64,000 bases of DNA from Parcubacteria group bacterium (lineage in GTDB: Bacteria > Patescibacteriota > Minisyncoccia > SW-4-49-11), in assembly GCA_943354045.1 (NCBI GenBank), contig CALRBF010000001.1, positions 343,598 through 407,597 of the forward strand, in the 5' to 3' direction. The notes below the pieces were generated by a model. The model saw only the letters and a list, made by a program, of their open reading frames with translations. It was not told the origin of the DNA and did not search any database. Shown piece by piece: positions 35,027 through 60,616 of the stretch; within the stretch, counting starts at the first letter, position 1, and each line of letters starts with the position of its first letter. The translations under genes and the position numbers were made by a program.

Positions 35027-35605
35027 ATGCAATTATCTGATGTCGATATAAAGAAAGGAATCGAATTGGGAGATATTATCATTAATGATTTTGATGAATC
35101 TCGTCTTCAACCCGCTAGCTATGATGTTTTGCTTGGATATGAGTTTATGATTTTTAATAGTCACAAATTTGAATATATTGACCCTAAAAAATCTGTTCAT
35201 GAGTTTATGGAAAAAGTTACTTTAAAAGACAAAGATGAATACTTTGTAATACATCCAGGTCAATTCGTATTAGGGGTCACCAAAGATTATTTTGGATGTA
35301 ATGAAAAATATGCCTGCCAAATTATGGGTAAAAGCTCTCTTGCGCGATACGGATTAATTGTACATACCACGGCTGGATTTATTGATCCGGGCAATAGGCT
35401 TAATGCTACTCTTGAATTTGTAAATACTAATACCGTGCCAATTCGGCTTTATCCAGAAATGAAAATTGCCCAAATTGCTTTTTATGAGCTCAAAACCCCC
35501 GCTCAAAATGCTTATGGCTCAGCCTCTCTAGGGAGTAAATATTATGACTCCAGAGGAGTACAAGCAAGTGATATGCATAAAAATTTTGATAATAAAGAAG
35601 AATAA
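35027..35605 (+). CDS. dcd: dCTP deaminase
   Basis: LQPASYDV, the HPGQFVLG jelly-roll core, and an E-containing active-site region. Confidence 0.85.
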   Translation: MQLSDVDIKKGIELGDIIINDFDESRLQPASYDVLLGYEFMIFNSHKFEYIDPKKSVHEFMEKVTLKDKDEYFVIHPGQFVLGVTKDYFGCNEKYACQIMGKSSLARYGLIVHTTAGFIDPGNRLNATLEFVNTNTVPIRLYPEMKIAQIAFYELKTPAQNAYGSASLGSKYYDSRGVQASDMHKNFDNKEE

Positions 35606-35606
35606 T

Positions 35607-37262
35607 ATGGCATATGAGTATTTTACATTCACAGTTTCAGACCCAGATAAAACAGATTTAGTTATTGTCTCAGTGACCGATACTCGTACAGGATATACTG
35701 TCAGAACAGCTCTTCCTAATTCGGGTAAACAAACAGCTTCTATTATGGCTTTTGCCGGAGCAAGATTTTCTCGCTCTGCTTTATCTGCAGAAGAATTATT
35801 CCAAGAAATTCAAGCGGCGGGAAGCAATGCTAATGAAAAATTAGCCAATATATTTCGCAATTATGGACACTCCTCAGTAGCAGATATGGCTCAATTATTT
35901 GCCTATATTGAGCAAATTCCAGATCATTATTCTACTATTTTCTTTAATGAGACTAGTGTAGGAGGTGGGCAGCAGCGCTCAACACGCTATCAAGACTTTG
36001 GGAATAGTAAACCTCTTGGATTAGAGAGTCTGGGGATTCTCTCAGATAAAGAGAATTATGATAAGGTGAATGAATCTCTTTTAGATTTACAACAATATGC
36101 CCTCGATAAATACAAATATTGGCAAGCAGAATTAACTGGCGTCTATATCAAGGGGTATGGAATTGATGAGAATAATAAATCAGAAACGGGCGCCCTCACA
36201 GCTCGGGTATTTGATTCTACCCGATATTTTCTCCCCTCAGGGCTTATGAATAAAACCTCTCTTGCCTATATTACCTCAGCTCGGGAATGGGCCCGACTAA
36301 TTTCTGTTTTTAAAGCCTCAGCTGAGCAAGAATTAGTATATTTAGCTGAGCAATTAGAAGTATTATTTGCCCCAGATGAAGCTTATGCAAAAGAAATTAA
36401 TTATACCGCAGAAGCCCCAGATTTAATTCGCCATACCCAAGCAGATACGATTACTCGTAATAATCTTAGCGAACTCAAAAAATATCTTATTGAAGAGGCG
36501 AATATAGAACAATATTTAGAATTACGCCAGACTATTAGCTATCATAATCTCAATGTTGAATTATTAGATATTAAGCTAAGTGCGGGGTCTAAAATTCTCT
36601 TTCAGCATATTCTTACCCTTTACCCGAATGCAACTGTTAAATCAATATTAGACTGGACCGTCACACTCACAAAAGAGCAAGAAAAAACTATATCTCAAAT
36701 ACTATTCAAAGACTTTAATCATCATAAGCAAATGGGGAATCTATTTAGAGTAAATACCCATAGTTTTGTATTGACCAGTTCTAATTCTGAGCTAAGAGAC
36801 TTAAATCGTCATCGTGCTTGGGGACGATATATACCAACTCTCAATACAGAGAATTATGAAGCGTCATTGTATAATGGATATACGCTACCATTATATCTTA
36901 CCGATAATCCTATATTTTCATCTGTCCGAGAGAAATTCGAGAAGGATTTACAAGGGTATTATGTCAAATTGCAGGACTTTGTTGCACTTACTCGTGAATA
37001 TACATGGTTCCCTCAATATCTCTGGACACAATTATTGCCATTTGGGCATATTTTTATGAGTGTTTTTCATGCTTCTCCAAAAGAAATTAATTATATGACA
37101 CAACTTCGAGTGAGGCCAGGAGGGCATATTAATTATCGCTATTTAGCCTATGAATTAGCACGTCTTGGGGCTGAAAGTGAACCATTATTATCAGCACTTA
37201 TTCCTGATACTATTACAAAACCCGATGCCAGCTCAAGAGAAGAATTTATTGATAGAAGTTAG
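35607..37262 (+). CDS. ThyX-like (flavin-dependent thymidylate synthase family) protein of double length, possible fused pseudo-dimer
   Basis: The first half has H..FAYIE...GGGQQRSTRY (an S-x-RY element). The second half has RHRAWGRY and HASPKEINYMTQLRVRPGGHINYRYLAYELA (ThyX C-terminal R..LR...H..E pattern). It lies immediately after dcd. The start is chosen at MAYEYF; the ORF track extends to 35544. Confidence 0.4.
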   Translation: MAYEYFTFTVSDPDKTDLVIVSVTDTRTGYTVRTALPNSGKQTASIMAFAGARFSRSALSAEELFQEIQAAGSNANEKLANIFRNYGHSSVADMAQLFAYIEQIPDHYSTIFFNETSVGGGQQRSTRYQDFGNSKPLGLESLGILSDKENYDKVNESLLDLQQYALDKYKYWQAELTGVYIKGYGIDENNKSETGALTARVFDSTRYFLPSGLMNKTSLAYITSAREWARLISVFKASAEQELVYLAEQLEVLFAPDEAYAKEINYTAEAPDLIRHTQADTITRNNLSELKKYLIEEANIEQYLELRQTISYHNLNVELLDIKLSAGSKILFQHILTLYPNATVKSILDWTVTLTKEQEKTISQILFKDFNHHKQMGNLFRVNTHSFVLTSSNSELRDLNRHRAWGRYIPTLNTENYEASLYNGYTLPLYLTDNPIFSSVREKFEKDLQGYYVKLQDFVALTREYTWFPQYLWTQLLPFGHIFMSVFHASPKEINYMTQLRVRPGGHINYRYLAYELARLGAESEPLLSALIPDTITKPDASSREEFIDRS

Positions 37263-40856: not shown

Positions 40857-41693
40857 TTATTTTAAGAAACGGATGGTGTCTGTCCAAGATAGTAGTTGTA
40901 AAGATTTATCTTTATATCCAGATGTGGCTCCACCTTCATCAACAGGAGGGTTTTGTATCGCAACATATTTTGAAGAATTAGTCTTATCTAAAAGAAATCC
41001 AGCATTAGCATTTCCGATACCATCACTTAATCTATAATATGGAGCTATATTACATTCTTTTTCATCATCATATTTTGTAAAAATATAGACAGCAGTATAT
41101 TGGTTCGGAGGAGTAAATGGCCCCGCATATCCATCCCTTAAATTCCAGTCTTTATATATATTGCTTTCCTCTTCAACAAAACATTTTTTAGTATTTGGCT
41201 TATTCAGAAACTGTTTTGTTATTGCCTGAGTCAGAGTATCATTTGGATTTTTATCAAACACCTCTAATGACTCTCCGTTTTTATAGCTATATTTTTCAAG
41301 ATATAAATAAACCTTATTACCTTCCTCTTTAACAAGTAGATTTTCATTCGGAGAAGCTAAATAAGTAAACCCAACACCAAGTTTGTCAGAATAGAATAGT
41401 TTAGTGTCTTTAGACTTCTTATCCATCTCAAAGATAGTATTAAGTTCATCTTGAGTATAAACTTTTTCTTTAGGAGCCTCTGGAGTAGGAGCAGGAGTAT
41501 TCTCTACAACAGGAGTTGTCTTTACTTCAGGAACTGAAACAACAGGCTCAATAGGATCAGCTACTTCCTTAGGAGAGAAATAGGGGATACCATATACTAT
41601 CGTAATAGCAATAAGAGCACCAACAATAACCAGAAGCGTAGCTTTGATTAACTCATAACGATGTTTTGGAGAAGTTCCAGGCTCAATTTGCAT
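40857..41693 (-). CDS. hypothetical membrane-anchored secreted protein (tandem paralog A)
   Basis: About 100 N-terminal aa nearly identical to the 41829-42650 product; C-terminal half diverged. Confidence 0.4.
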   Translation of the reverse strand: MQIEPGTSPKHRYELIKATLLVIVGALIAITIVYGIPYFSPKEVADPIEPVVSVPEVKTTPVVENTPAPTPEAPKEKVYTQDELNTIFEMDKKSKDTKLFYSDKLGVGFTYLASPNENLLVKEEGNKVYLYLEKYSYKNGESLEVFDKNPNDTLTQAITKQFLNKPNTKKCFVEEESNIYKDWNLRDGYAGPFTPPNQYTAVYIFTKYDDEKECNIAPYYRLSDGIGNANAGFLLDKTNSSKYVAIQNPPVDEGGATSGYKDKSLQLLSWTDTIRFLK

Positions 41694-41828: not shown

Positions 41829-42650
41829 TTATTTTAATATTCTTAGAGAGCGTTCCCAACCTTCATTTCCTAACCCTGAACTAGCTATACTTTCTTGTCC
41901 AATACGAACAAATAGATATTTAGAAGGCACCTTAGAGTCTTCTGAAAAGAATTGCCTACCATTTGTTGCAGCATAGGTTTGTACTTTCTCTGGACAATTA
42001 GTAATACCTCCAAACCAAACATCACCATTAGTAGGAACAGGATAGAATATCTCAGCATAATTATATCCTTTTAACTGTTTTCCAGATGAATCTCCATCAG
42101 TATATTTTTGAGCAAAACATTTTTTGGCATCTACACCACTCAAGAATTCTTTAGTAATAGCTTGCTCTAGAGTATCTTTGGGATCTTTCGTAAATACTTC
42201 TAAATTTACCCATTCTGATTTAGTGCTCCCTTTTTCATAATAGTCTAGAGCAACTCCATTACCTTTCTCGACTGCAGAGATTTCATATATATTAGAAGGA
42301 AGATCTTCTGGTAAACTATAAGTAAATCCAACCCCAAGTTTGTCAGAATAGAATAGCTTAGTACCAGGTTTTTTCTTATTCATTTCAAAGATAGTATTAA
42401 GTTCATCTTGAGTATAAACTTTTTCTTTAGGAGCCTCTTGAGTAGGGACTGGCGTATTTTCTACAACAGGAGTTGGCTTTACTTCAGGAACTGAAACAAC
42501 AGGCTCAATAGGATCAGCTACCTCCTTAGGAGAGAAATAGGGGATACCATATACTATCGTAATAGTAATAAGAGCACCAACAATAACCTGAAGTGTAGCT
42601 TTGATTAACTCATAGCGATGTTTTGGAGAAGTTCCAGGCTCAATTTGCAT
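41829..42650 (-). CDS. hypothetical membrane-anchored secreted protein (tandem paralog B)
   Basis: See 40857-41693. The 5' DNA at about 42398-42650 is near-identical to 41441-41693. Confidence 0.4.
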   Translation of the reverse strand: MQIEPGTSPKHRYELIKATLQVIVGALITITIVYGIPYFSPKEVADPIEPVVSVPEVKPTPVVENTPVPTQEAPKEKVYTQDELNTIFEMNKKKPGTKLFYSDKLGVGFTYSLPEDLPSNIYEISAVEKGNGVALDYYEKGSTKSEWVNLEVFTKDPKDTLEQAITKEFLSGVDAKKCFAQKYTDGDSSGKQLKGYNYAEIFYPVPTNGDVWFGGITNCPEKVQTYAATNGRQFFSEDSKVPSKYLFVRIGQESIASSGLGNEGWERSLRILK

Positions 42651-57407: not shown

Positions 57408-58373
57408 ATGTTTTACAATGGACTTGTAATTGGTAAATTTTACCCACCACATAAAGGACATAAATTCCTTATTGATACGGCGCAAAAAATGAGTGAAAAT
57501 CTAACCATTATTATTTGTGCTAAAGATAATGAAACTATTCCAGGAACTTTACGAGCGCAATGGCTATCACAAATACATCCTAAAGCTAAAATCATATTGA
57601 TCAATGATAATAAATTGGCTGATGATGATTCAGAAGGTTGGGCAAAATATACTGTAGATATACTAGGATTTGTACCAGATGCTGTTTTTACATCAGAAGA
57701 TTATGGAGATCCATATGCTCATTTTATGGGAAGTATACATGTACTTGTAGATAAAGAGCGTGCCACTATTCCGATATCAGGGACATTGGTGCGTAATAAC
57801 CCTACAAAATATATAAAATTTCTTGAACCAAATGTGAGAGCATATTTTACAAGAAGAATTGTAGTATTAGGGGCTGAATCAACGGGTACGACAACTTTAG
57901 CTAAAGCATTAGCACAGTATTATAATACGGTATGGGTGCCTGAATATGGACGATATTTTAGTGAAGGAAAACGTTTTGTAGGATATGGTGAAGGGGATTG
58001 GACTACTGCAGAATTTGTAGCTATTGCCAAAGCCCAAGCAAAATTTGAAGATTCTCTCGCTGAATCAAGTAAGGGGATAGTGATTTCTGATACTGATGCT
58101 TTTGCTACAGCTATTTGGCATGAAAGATATTTAGGTTTTCGTGCTCCAGAAGTAGAAGCAATCTCCGCTAATAGAAGAGTAGATCTCTATATAATAACAG
58201 GAGATGAAATTCCTTTTGAAGATGATGGACTTCGCGATGGGGAAAATATTCGACATGAATTGCACCAACTTTTTATTCAGCGTGTCATAGAAAGTAAAAA
58301 GCCATATATTATAGTACAAGGTAGTGTAGAAGAACGGCTACAAGTTGCGGTAGAGGCTATATATAAACTTTAG
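57408..58373 (+). CDS. nadR: NadR-type NMN adenylyltransferase / ribosylnicotinamide kinase (no HTH domain)
   Basis: HxGH motif GKFYPPHKGH; P-loop GAESTGTTTLAKALA of the RNK domain. Confidence 0.8.
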   Translation: MFYNGLVIGKFYPPHKGHKFLIDTAQKMSENLTIIICAKDNETIPGTLRAQWLSQIHPKAKIILINDNKLADDDSEGWAKYTVDILGFVPDAVFTSEDYGDPYAHFMGSIHVLVDKERATIPISGTLVRNNPTKYIKFLEPNVRAYFTRRIVVLGAESTGTTTLAKALAQYYNTVWVPEYGRYFSEGKRFVGYGEGDWTTAEFVAIAKAQAKFEDSLAESSKGIVISDTDAFATAIWHERYLGFRAPEVEAISANRRVDLYIITGDEIPFEDDGLRDGENIRHELHQLFIQRVIESKKPYIIVQGSVEERLQVAVEAIYKL

Positions 58374-58382
58374 GAAATATAA

Positions 58383-59106
58383 AAGAGGAGACAAAAACCT
58401 CCTCTTTTATATTTTGGCTCCGGAAGCTGGACGACGTTCGAACCTTTGAGTGGGGGATATAGGTACTTACCTCACCCCTTTCTCACTATAGTTTTGGAGA
58501 AATGAAAAAGCCCCCGCAGTGGCGGGGGTGTGTGCTGAGTAATTGCTACTCAGGGGGTTTTCAAAGTTTCCCCAAGTTTTTGGCCTACTTGATGTAATGC
58601 GACAGCTGGCCACAGTGCAGTTGTACCTAGACCTATCACTAGTTGGGATCTAGATAGCTCTCCTTTCGGGAATTCTGGGCCAAAGGCACCTATACCGACG
58701 GAAAAACCGACCCCCAGTAGTGAGTATGACACTGAGTATGACACCAATACGATCCATGGAAATAGATCGATGGACTTTGCTGGTGCTTCTGGAGCAGTGG
58801 GGGTTGGGCTCTCAGTAGTCATTGGGAATAACGAACATTAGCAAGAATAACATACCACATTTTCCCAATTTTGTCAATATCAAACAACATTATATTCTAA
58901 CTTATACTTTACTTATATATAAACCAAAAAACAGCTAAAATAAGCCGTTTAAAGGGAGCGGGCTCCGCGAGTAGGATTGCAAACCAGTCGTGAATGAGAT
59001 TCACTCCTTGGAACCACTCGGTTCCAATACCTCCACCACGGGAAACTCCCGTTTCCCGACCCCTTCCCCAGGTTCTCATCCTACTCTCTCAAAAGACAAG
59101 AAATAT
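58383..59106 (-). repeat. Tandem unit A (724 bp): terminator + tRNA-3'-end-like element E + small 2-TM ORF + promoter + pseudo-3'-exon fragment
   Basis: Near-identical in organisation and sequence to unit B (59107-59889). The terminator AAAGAGGAGACAAAAA(C/T)CTCC..TTTT is identical to the one following the real tRNA at 59890-59916. Confidence 0.75.
58550..58822 (-). CDS. small hypothetical 2-TM membrane protein (unit A)
   Basis: 90 aa. N-terminus MTTESPTPTAPEAPAKSIDLFPWIVL and C-terminus ALHQVGQKLGETLKTP are identical to the unit B paralog. Own terminator hairpins downstream. Confidence 0.4.
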   Translation of the reverse strand: MTTESPTPTAPEAPAKSIDLFPWIVLVSYSVSYSLLGVGFSVGIGAFGPEFPKGELSRSQLVIGLGTTALWPAVALHQVGQKLGETLKTP

Positions 59107-59889
59107 AAAAGAGGAGACAAAAATCTCCCCTTTTATATTTTGGCTCCGGAAGCTGGACGATGTTCGAACCTTTGAGTGGGGGGTATAAGTACCTACCTCA
59201 CCATCTCCTCACTATAGGTTGGGAGAAATAAAAAGCCCCCGCAGTGGCGGGGGTGTGTGCTGAGTAATTGCTGCTCAGGGGGTTTTCAAAGTTTCCCCAA
59301 GTTTTTGGCCTACTTGATGTAATGCAACAAATGGCCACGCAGCGGTGATACCTGTTATCACTACTGTCTGGGGCAGTGTGAGTAGTTCTTGCGGGTATCT
59401 TGAACCTAAGATACCCTTGGTAAAACCTATTCCCAGCATTGTGTATGATGCCAATACGATCCATGGAAATAGATCGATGGACTTTGCTGGTGCTTCTGGA
59501 GCAGTGGGGGTTGGGCTCTCAGTAGTCATTGGGAATAACGAACATTAGCAAGAATAACATACCACATTTTCCCAATTTTGTCAATACCAAACAACATTAT
59601 ATTCTAACTTATACTTTACTTATATATAAACCAAAAAACAGCTAAAATAAGCTGTTTAAAGGGAGTGGTCTCCGCGAGTAGGATTGCAAACCAGTCGTGA
59701 ATGGGATTTACTCCTTGGAACCACTCGGTTCCAATACCTCCACCACGGGAAACTACCATTCCCATCAATCCCCCCACACCCCGTCTCGGACACCTACGGT
59801 TTCCGACACTCGGAGTAAACTCCTCGCTGCCTTCCTGTCCAGGGGGACTGATACCCCTTCCCCAGGTTCTCATCCTATACTCTCTCAAA
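59107..59889 (-). repeat. Tandem unit B (783 bp), paralog of unit A
   Basis: See unit A. Confidence 0.75.
59275..59529 (-). CDS. small hypothetical 2-TM membrane protein (unit B)
   Basis: 84 aa, paralog of 58550-58822. Confidence 0.4.
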   Translation of the reverse strand: MTTESPTPTAPEAPAKSIDLFPWIVLASYTMLGIGFTKGILGSRYPQELLTLPQTVVITGITAAWPFVALHQVGQKLGETLKTP

Positions 59890-59974
59890 AGATAAGAAAT
59901 ATAAAAGAGGAGACAAAAATCTCCCCTTTTATATTTTGGCTCCGCGAGTAGGATTCGAACCTACGACCAATCGG

Positions 59975-60530
59975 TTACACCTTATCCAAGTATTTCTACA
60001 AGGCGTGGACTATATCATCATCCATCATAGTGATGGAGCGAGGCGCTTCCACTGTATTGCTACAATGTACTCCCTTGCGGGATAGTCTCTGAACCTTCCT
60101 GAGATTTCTCAGGCTTGGCTGCTGATTTCCATAATGTTTCCATCTTAGGGTTCCAGCAATTCACCTCGTGTTTCAACTTCTGTTACCAGAAGAAGCTGCA
60201 ACTAGACCCGCATGAATTTCTTTGTGGCAGTTAGAGCATACCAATACACATTTATCGAGTTCATCTTTCATTTTATCCCAAGATCTTGTAATTCCTTTAT
60301 AGGATATTCCAAAGTCTTTTTGATTGGGATCAGTGTGATGAAATTCTAATGCATCTGTACAGGTATTGTATCCACATAAGGAGCATTTATCTCCCAAGTA
60401 AGATACAGCTTTTTTCTTGAGAAGTTTTCTTCTCTGAGAAACTGCATTTTTAAGATATTCAGCACGATCAGAATATTTTCTTTTGCCAGGCATACTAATA
60501 TAATTAGGTGTACGATGACTCAAGAAGGTA
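59975..60530 (-). mobile_element. Group I intron (about 556 nt) carrying an HNH homing endonuclease ORF
   Basis: Conserved R element GGTTCAGAGACTA (60083-60095, minus) and S element GATATAGTCC (60007-60016, minus) form P7. A candidate IGS GCAGCC is complementary to the exon end GGCUGU with a U-G wobble. Confidence 0.7.
60173..60493 (-). CDS. HNH homing endonuclease (intron-encoded)
   Basis: CSLCGY..EFHHTDPN..CVLVCSNCHKEIH is an HNH/zinc-finger motif. The start is chosen at MPGKRK; the ORF-track start at 60535 is the tRNA anticodon GTG itself. Confidence 0.7.
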   Translation of the reverse strand: MPGKRKYSDRAEYLKNAVSQRRKLLKKKAVSYLGDKCSLCGYNTCTDALEFHHTDPNQKDFGISYKGITRSWDKMKDELDKCVLVCSNCHKEIHAGLVAASSGNRS

Positions 60531-60616
60531 TTCACAGCCGACTGCTCTACCGCTGAGCTATCGCGGAATTAGATTTGAAAGGTACTTGTATATTGTACCG
60601 AATAAGAGAGATATAG

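Follow-up and report, generated by a model that had tools for sequence, protein, structure and literature searches.

A long-form ThyX-like protein with two ThyX-fold domains and divided active-site residues, encoded beside dcd in a Parcubacteria group bacterium: a predicted single-chain thymidylate synthase

The dcd and long-form thyX genes

In this study, a 64,000-nucleotide (nt) stretch of the genome of a Parcubacteria group bacterium (GenBank assembly GCA_943354045.1, contig CALRBF010000001.1, positions 343,598 to 407,597; hereafter the window) was analysed, with the focus on two adjacent genes located at window positions 35027–37262. Unless indicated otherwise, all features described below lie on the plus strand. 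The first gene, dcd (35027..35605), encodes a deoxycytidine triphosphate (dCTP) deaminase of 192 amino acids (aa), recognized by Pfam DCD (9.8e-41) and by TIGR02274, whose equivalog cut-off it passes (168.7 bits vs 92.8). The second (35607..37262) starts 1 nt past the dcd stop codon and comprises 551 codons and a stop; it encodes a long-form, two-domain protein resembling ThyX, the flavin-dependent thymidylate synthase (FDTS). The dcd stop codon TAA ends at 35605 and a single T at 35606 separates it from the ATG at 35607, which is the 1-nt gap already described in a first-pass annotation made from the sequence alone.

Position 35607 is the likely start of the second gene, because homologues align from the methionine of MAYEYF encoded there. 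A start at 35544, which yields a 572-aa open reading frame (ORF) in a mechanically compiled ORF list, overlaps dcd and was rejected. The gaps around the gene pair amount to 11 nt (upstream), 1 nt (between the genes) and 38 nt (downstream) and, since they are so short, particularly the one between dcd and the long thyX, the two genes are likely to be co-transcribed.

Two ThyX-fold domains in one polypeptide

The family to which the 551-aa protein belongs is too diverged for profile-to-sequence searches, and therefore a fold search and profile–profile comparisons were needed. The N-terminal domain (residues 1–275; 35607..36431), which carries the substrate-binding set of residues and no RHR motif, was identified with Pfam Thy1 (PF02511) and hhalign. 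The Pfam match of the window protein (28.3 bits vs a gathering cut-off of 24.8) is confined to residues 47–250. The C-terminal domain (residues 276–551; 36432..37259), which carries RHR and the equivalent of R174 of Thermotoga maritima ThyX (Tm; TM0449) and has neither the S-x-RY loop nor an R147 equivalent, was identified with AlphaFold2 (AF2), Foldseek and hhalign. Among the relatives of the protein, which score 51–106 bits with Thy1, two Thy1 stretches were found in each of eight full-length sequences, and the C halves of 14 out of 17 match this profile (best 2.6e-12).

The AF2 model of the whole protein, computed from a 28-sequence alignment, reached a predicted local distance difference test (pLDDT) score of 89.7 and a predicted TM-score (pTM) of 0.89. 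Its top Foldseek matches in the PDB were all ThyX, each over about 230–260 columns, which corresponds to one domain. The model of residues 276–551 alone (pLDDT 87.4) retrieved only ThyX among its top matches, with a probability of 1.0 and a target-normalised TM-score (TMt) of 0.5–0.67; ThyX chains at a TMt of about 0.5–0.67 were thus the top PDB matches of both models. Using a canonical ThyX profile built from an alignment around T. maritima TM0449, hhalign matched the N half at 85% (E 5.9e-6; residues 77–255 to Tm 42–195) and the C half at 80% (E 1.4e-5). The two halves matched each other at 1.4% when 28 close sequences were used; an alignment of 80 diverse sequences raised the value to 49.6% (E 1.7e-4) along 211 co-linear columns, which is still a weak match.

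The 551-aa ORF is therefore almost certainly a two-domain protein of the ThyX fold, and the proposal of the first-pass annotation that it is a fused double ThyX is borne out by matches obtained with each half compared apart. It may be described as a Thy1–Thy1 protein whose two domains appear to have diverged long ago, the sequence being compatible with a tandem duplication as well as with a fusion of two paralogues.

Division of the active-site residues between the domains

Residue equivalences were taken from the hhalign mapping to Tm numbering, and conservation was assessed in homologous ORFs from 80 loci, representing groups of the candidate phyla radiation (CPR), Acidobacteriota, Sulfobacillus, Tumebacillus and others, with identities down to 24–27%. 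This analysis revealed 42 columns conserved in at least 95% of the 80 sequences, 30 of which are located in the N half (including H88, S90, D93, S125, R127, Y128, R200, D203, R206 and R226) and 12 in the C half (including R401, H402, R403, R501, H507 and R511).

Near the start of the N domain lies ARFSRS (residues 52–57; 35760..35777), in which A52, S55, R56 and S57 are at least 95% conserved across the superfamily; it is placed outside the hhalign-aligned region and resembles AARVSF (residues 26–31) of the Tm sequence. It is followed by GHSSVAD (residues 87–93; 35865..35885), where the conserved H88, S90 and D93 are the equivalents of Tm H53, T55 and E58; by the same mapping H88 and S90 correspond to H69 and S71 of the Mycobacterium tuberculosis (Mtb) enzyme and are, with D93, flavin-side residues. 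The degenerate ThyX motif, ETSVGGGQQRSTRY (residues 115–128; 35949..35990), contains S125, R127 and Y128, equivalent to Tm S88, R90 and Y91, together with Q123 at the position of Tm E86, and the place of the Tm RHR triplet (R78-H79-R80) is occupied by E115-T116-S117. Further downstream, RVFDSTRYFLP (residues 200–210; 36204..36236) supplies R206, the equivalent of Tm R147, along with R200 and D203, and SAREWAR (residues 224–230; 36276..36296) supplies R226, the equivalent of Tm R165 (Mtb R190, a ligand of the phosphate of flavin adenine dinucleotide, FAD). The Tm R174 position of the N half is a gap or a residue other than Arg.

The C domain carries the remaining residues. RHRAWGRY (residues 401–408; 36807..36830) provides R401, H402 and R403, equivalent to Tm R78, H79 and R80, and is not followed by a conserved Ser/Arg/Tyr loop of the kind formed by Tm Ser88, Arg90 and Tyr91. 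The R147 and R165 positions of Tm are occupied by T474 and K492, respectively. Close to the C-terminus, LRVRPGGHINYR (residues 500–511; 37104..37139) contains R501, the equivalent of Tm R174, which is the Arg activating deoxyuridine monophosphate (dUMP), as well as G506, H507, Y510 and R511, each at least 95% conserved.

A contiguous RHRx7S(xRY) motif is consequently absent from both domains: the N domain reads ETS-x7-S-T-R-Y, the loop is missing after RHR in the C domain, and the same holds for the 80 relatives. The equivalents of Tm H53, S88, R90, Y91, R147, R165, R174 and R78-H79-R80 each occur once per chain, split over the two halves, and this N/C division of catalytic residues is identical in all 80 relatives aligned. 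The S-x-RY and RHR matches and the match near the C-terminus (R501, H507 and R511) are not due to chance, because the residues are at least 95% conserved at an overall identity of 24–27%. Judged by sequence, the losses in the two halves are complementary and ancient and do not reflect decay, since the division is the same in every relative. The three motif observations of the first-pass annotation, namely S-x-R-Y without RHR in the N half, RHRAWGRY without the 7-residue spacer and Ser in the C half, and a ThyX-like pattern at the C-terminus, could accordingly be placed at residues 115–128 (with ETS instead of RHR), 401–408 and 500–511, respectively.

Family size and annotation

The window protein belongs to a long-form, two-domain family, with which it shares full-length co-linear homology, the Thy1–Thy1 architecture and the split motifs. 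The family includes 206 full-length homologues of about 540–590 aa. An exhaustive HMMER search retrieved 1861 clusters at 50% identity (E<=1e-3), nearly all of the best 150 having a length of 500–600 aa, and a genome scan yielded at least 571 loci.

Many members are labelled 'thymidylate synthase ThyX' by JGI, and those of Firmicutes, Chloroflexi and Acidobacteriota are named 'FAD-dependent thymidylate synthase' by NCBI, where the close CPR relatives (P0008, P0012, P0020, P0050 and P0069) are 'hypothetical protein'. This uneven annotation is consistent with scores lying far below the cut-off of the NCBIfam thyX model (TIGR02170). The functional call itself is not new, as the family already bears the ThyX or thymidylate synthase label and is neither rare nor unannotated. 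No description of a fused or split-site ThyX was found in the literature, and no PDB entry of the family was found.

Gene context and supply of dUMP

The dcd and long thyX pair is flanked by housekeeping genes of the same strand: it is preceded by ychF, prfB, ftsE and ftsX and followed by two genes for ABC exporters. When the window Dcd was used as a query, a dcd gene was found adjacent to the long thyX in 33 of 86 related loci, or in 34 of 87 sequences with the window included. Its placement differs among lineages: in the close CPR relatives dcd immediately precedes the long thyX, in Saccharibacteria, Dojkabacteria and the P0059 lineage it immediately follows it, and in Acidobacteriota and Bryobacteraceae it lies 0.5–1 kb upstream. 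The linkage is thus frequent, though not universal. In one relative (P0114; 44% identical, on a 699-kb contig) the long thyX is preceded by a gene for a 322-aa protein without a Pfam match (locus L001, 9003–9971), and dcd is not adjacent.

Phages also carry the long form. In the acidobacterial jumbo phage Tunturi_5 of Tunturiibacter (L088, 2400–6488) the gene follows that of a dCMP (deoxycytidine monophosphate) deaminase and is placed near a dUTPase gene, which makes a three-gene cluster. A 491-aa copy annotated as 'thymidylate synthase' is found in Microcystis phage Ma-LMM01 (L087, 4983–6458) and related cyanophages; in Ma-LMM01 it stands alone as gp020. For a copy of this type Foldseek gave a TMt of 0.87 over the full length. 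The presence of three different dUMP-supplying enzymes (Dcd, dCMP deaminase and dUTPase) as neighbours points to dUMP as the substrate of the long ThyX. The argument, put forward in the first-pass annotation, that linkage with dCTP deaminase supports a thymidylate synthase role gains strength from the conservation of dUMP-supply linkage across phyla.

Among solved structures, the window Dcd is closest to the dCTP deaminase of M. tuberculosis (2qxx, 4a6a and 2qlp; E 1e-42, full length), and E. coli Dcd is much more distant (1xs1; 1.8e-22). The mycobacterial protein, named in the PDB title as dCTP deaminase only, is a bifunctional, dUMP-forming dCTP deaminase:dUTPase. If the window Dcd were dUMP-forming as well, dcd and the long thyX would together encode a complete route from dCTP to deoxythymidine monophosphate (dTMP).

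Predicted assembly and alternative explanations

In published reviews (PMC6514825, PMC5954106), canonical ThyX appears solely as a homotetramer whose four sites are identical. Each site combines RHR and Mtb Arg199 (Tm R174) of subunit A, Mtb Ser71 and Arg190 (Tm T55 and R165) of subunit B, and Mtb Arg87, Gln103, Ser105, Arg107 and Tyr108 of subunit C, the last three being Tm S88, R90 and Y91 (PMC6514825). R174 serves to activate dUMP, and the transfer of the methylene group involves S88, R90 and Y91 (PMC8316439). In the fused protein the C domain alone provides the residues with role A, and those with roles B and C are found in the N domain alone. The earlier suggestion that the halves hold complementary parts of the active site therefore agrees with the subunit origins in the canonical enzyme (PMC6514825), as it does with the conservation of the split in the 80 relatives.

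One chain cannot complete a canonical site, because the B- and C-role residues are both confined to the N domain; and because RHR and S-x-RY come from separate subunits in canonical ThyX, a dimer with two sites instead of four is predicted. According to this model, the protein would be a single-chain, long-form ThyX composed of two domains of the ThyX fold, joined head to tail, strongly diverged and specialised. The N domain would retain the dUMP-holding and flavin-side residues, and the C domain R501, which activates dUMP, and R401-H402-R403, which clamp the FAD phosphate. Two chains would associate into a pseudo-tetramer (N2C2) of D2 geometry with two sites, to each of which both N domains and a single C domain contribute; the remaining two sites would be dead, being devoid of the ligand residues. 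Such an enzyme would use FAD and folate, and the adjacent Dcd would supply its dUMP, so that the gene pair may constitute a dCTP -> dUMP -> dTMP cassette.

It is considered likely that the 551-aa protein makes dTMP, and probable that it is a long-form, single-chain flavin-dependent thymidylate synthase acting as a dimer of fusions and fed by the neighbouring Dcd. Synthesis of dTMP specifically by a two-site dimer of fusions is favoured with moderate confidence. The most far-reaching version is offered tentatively, at slightly less than an even chance: a natural single-chain 'heterodimer', an obligate dimer with two composite and two extinct sites, which would be the sole thymidylate synthase of many CPR bacteria, of Acidobacteriota and of some phages, and which has never been described structurally or biochemically.

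Several observations weigh against the interpretation as a single-chain thymidylate synthase. The C half of the window protein has no Pfam Thy1 match of its own, and the entire protein has no match to TIGR02170, with which its relatives score 30–43 bits against an equivalog cut-off of 87.9. Searches of PDB sequences with the protein (phmmer) and with the family and C-half profiles (hmmsearch) returned no ThyX. For the C half, the hhalign mapping has an uncertainty of a few residues near the H53 equivalent and past RHR, and the subunit roles confirmed from the published site do not extend to Tm R147. No biochemical or structural datum was found for any long-form member. In favour of a role in dTMP synthesis, no thyA and no short thyX was detected by tblastn, for which the E. 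coli ThyA and T. maritima ThyX sequences served as queries, within the area covered, namely the 64-kb window and the flanks in the 86 related loci. A COG census points the same way, with ThyX present in six out of six Acidobacteria genomes and ThyA in none (PMC5954106), the COG1351 entries of these genomes not being confirmed as the long form.

Among the alternative explanations, the one that survives best, although unlikely, accepts the thymidylate synthase and replaces the two-site dimer: the C domain might serve mainly as a scaffold, or the protein might act as a one-site monomer or form higher oligomers with non-canonical sites. It draws on the small share of strongly conserved columns in the C half (12 of 42), on the unverified subunit source of Tm R147, and on the fact that the oligomeric state and the domain packing of the dimer model are themselves inferred. 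On the other hand, the residues of the T55/R165 type and of the S88/R90/Y91 type need separate subunits (PMC6514825), and both are found only in the N domain; a pure scaffold, moreover, is hard to reconcile with the conservation of the C-domain RHR and R501 across phyla.

Quite unlikely is an enzyme of the ThyX fold with other chemistry, for example a PolB-like C5-methylase of uridine monophosphate (UMP) or a hydroxymethylase or other modifier of another pyrimidine nucleotide, which would not be the thymidylate synthase of the cell. The scores below the TIGR02170 equivalog cut-off, the strong divergence from canonical ThyX with its empty PDB profile searches, the presence of PolB (4p5b) among the structural matches, and family-specific invariants without an assigned role (R124, Q129 and the C-terminal S543, E546 and R550) are all in line with this possibility. 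However, conservation extends to every canonical ligand of dUMP and FAD (the equivalents of S88, R90, Y91, R174 and RHR), PolB ranks below the true ThyX structures, the neighbouring genes of different lineages encode Dcd, dCMP deaminase and dUTPase, and no second thymidylate synthase is encoded nearby (in the window and the 86 loci). A decaying or non-catalytic duplicate, that is, a pseudoenzyme or a regulatory nucleotide-binding protein, is suggested by the loss of a part of the ThyX signature from each half alone, but deserves very little credence, given that the losses are complementary and not random, that the family is intact, full-length and strongly conserved in 1861 clusters at 50% identity, and that phages retain the gene. 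It is because of the residue conservation and the gene context that PolB-like chemistry and a pseudoenzyme were rated low.

Humans have no ThyX, and the enzyme is being pursued as a target for antibiotics; its active site is hard to dissect, as in a homotetramer every mutation is introduced four times, once per subunit. In a two-site dimer of fusions the dUMP loop would belong to one domain, and the FAD clamp together with the dUMP-activating Arg to the other; such a protein would reveal which of the subunit contributions are essential and would offer a half-of-sites enzyme for mechanistic work. Furthermore, the long form misses the NCBIfam equivalog, and CPR genomes can therefore seem to be devoid of thymidylate synthesis, which suggests possible under-calling where annotation relies on NCBIfam models.

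Other features of the window

On the minus strand, positions 59986–60224 match the group I intron model of Rfam (RF00028) over its full length (positions 1–253; 73.3 bits); this was the sole Rfam match at the gathering level. Directly 5' of it, also on the minus strand, is a 120-aa ORF (60173–60535) with an HNH-like Cys/His pattern (CSLCGY...EFHHTD...CSNCHKEIH), which probably encodes a homing endonuclease. No host gene for ribosomal RNA or transfer RNA (tRNA) was detected around the intron, and ARAGORN found neither tRNA nor transfer-messenger RNA genes in the 64 kb.

The intron adjoins a tandem direct repeat (58356–59953) with a unit of about 710–800 nt, present as two complete copies followed by an incomplete one. 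A 300-nt stretch is 97% identical between the units, and a 76-nt segment containing a hairpin occurs three times. The GC content of the repeat is about 44%, compared with about 33% nearby, and each unit contains a small minus-strand ORF of 84–90 aa, starting MTTESPTPTAPEAPAKSIDLFPWIV. Past the ABC exporter pair, two minus-strand ORFs of 278 aa (40857–41693) and 273 aa (41829–42650) gave no Pfam match at E<=1e-5.

Comparison with known systems

Among the closest known systems is canonical homotetrameric ThyX/FDTS (T. maritima TM0449, M. tuberculosis Rv2754c, and the enzymes of Helicobacter pylori and PBCV-1), whose fold is common to both halves of the window protein. Once the two halves are pooled, the catalytic and ligand residues are the same, and the logic of the metabolic neighbourhood, with dUMP supply, is alike. 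The differences concern the architecture: the window protein holds two unlike domains in a single chain of about 550 aa, whereas canonical ThyX is composed of four identical subunits of about 220–250 aa; RHRx7S is never complete in one domain; two sites are predicted instead of four; and the score lies below the TIGR02170 cut-off.

A second group comprises the long forms annotated as 'FAD-dependent thymidylate synthase' or 'alternative thymidylate synthase-like protein' in Sulfobacillus, Tumebacillus flagellatus, Brevibacillus dissolubilis, Dehalococcoidia, Acidobacteriota, and the phages Ma-LMM01 (gp020) and Tunturi_5 (gp50). They are co-linear with the window protein over the full length (24–31% identity) and share the two Thy1 stretches and the motif split, but are shorter (about 465–520 aa) and form a clade separate from the CPR one. 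The CPR clade has conserved features of its own, namely NHH (residues 371–373), AWGR past RHR and a C-terminal EF.DRS. The ThyX of Chlamydia trachomatis has been studied biochemically (PMC3498832). Probably about 529 aa in length, the chlamydial enzyme may also be a long form.

The UMP/dUMP methylase PolB of polyoxin biosynthesis (4p5b) also has the ThyX fold, but is a weaker structural match to the window protein. PolB has one domain only and comes from a biosynthetic cluster, whereas the context of the window shows nothing related to antibiotics. Compared with these systems, the locus itself is ordinary, with a dUMP-supply gene beside a thymidylate synthase gene, and the architecture of its product appears to be an unstudied variant of a known enzyme.

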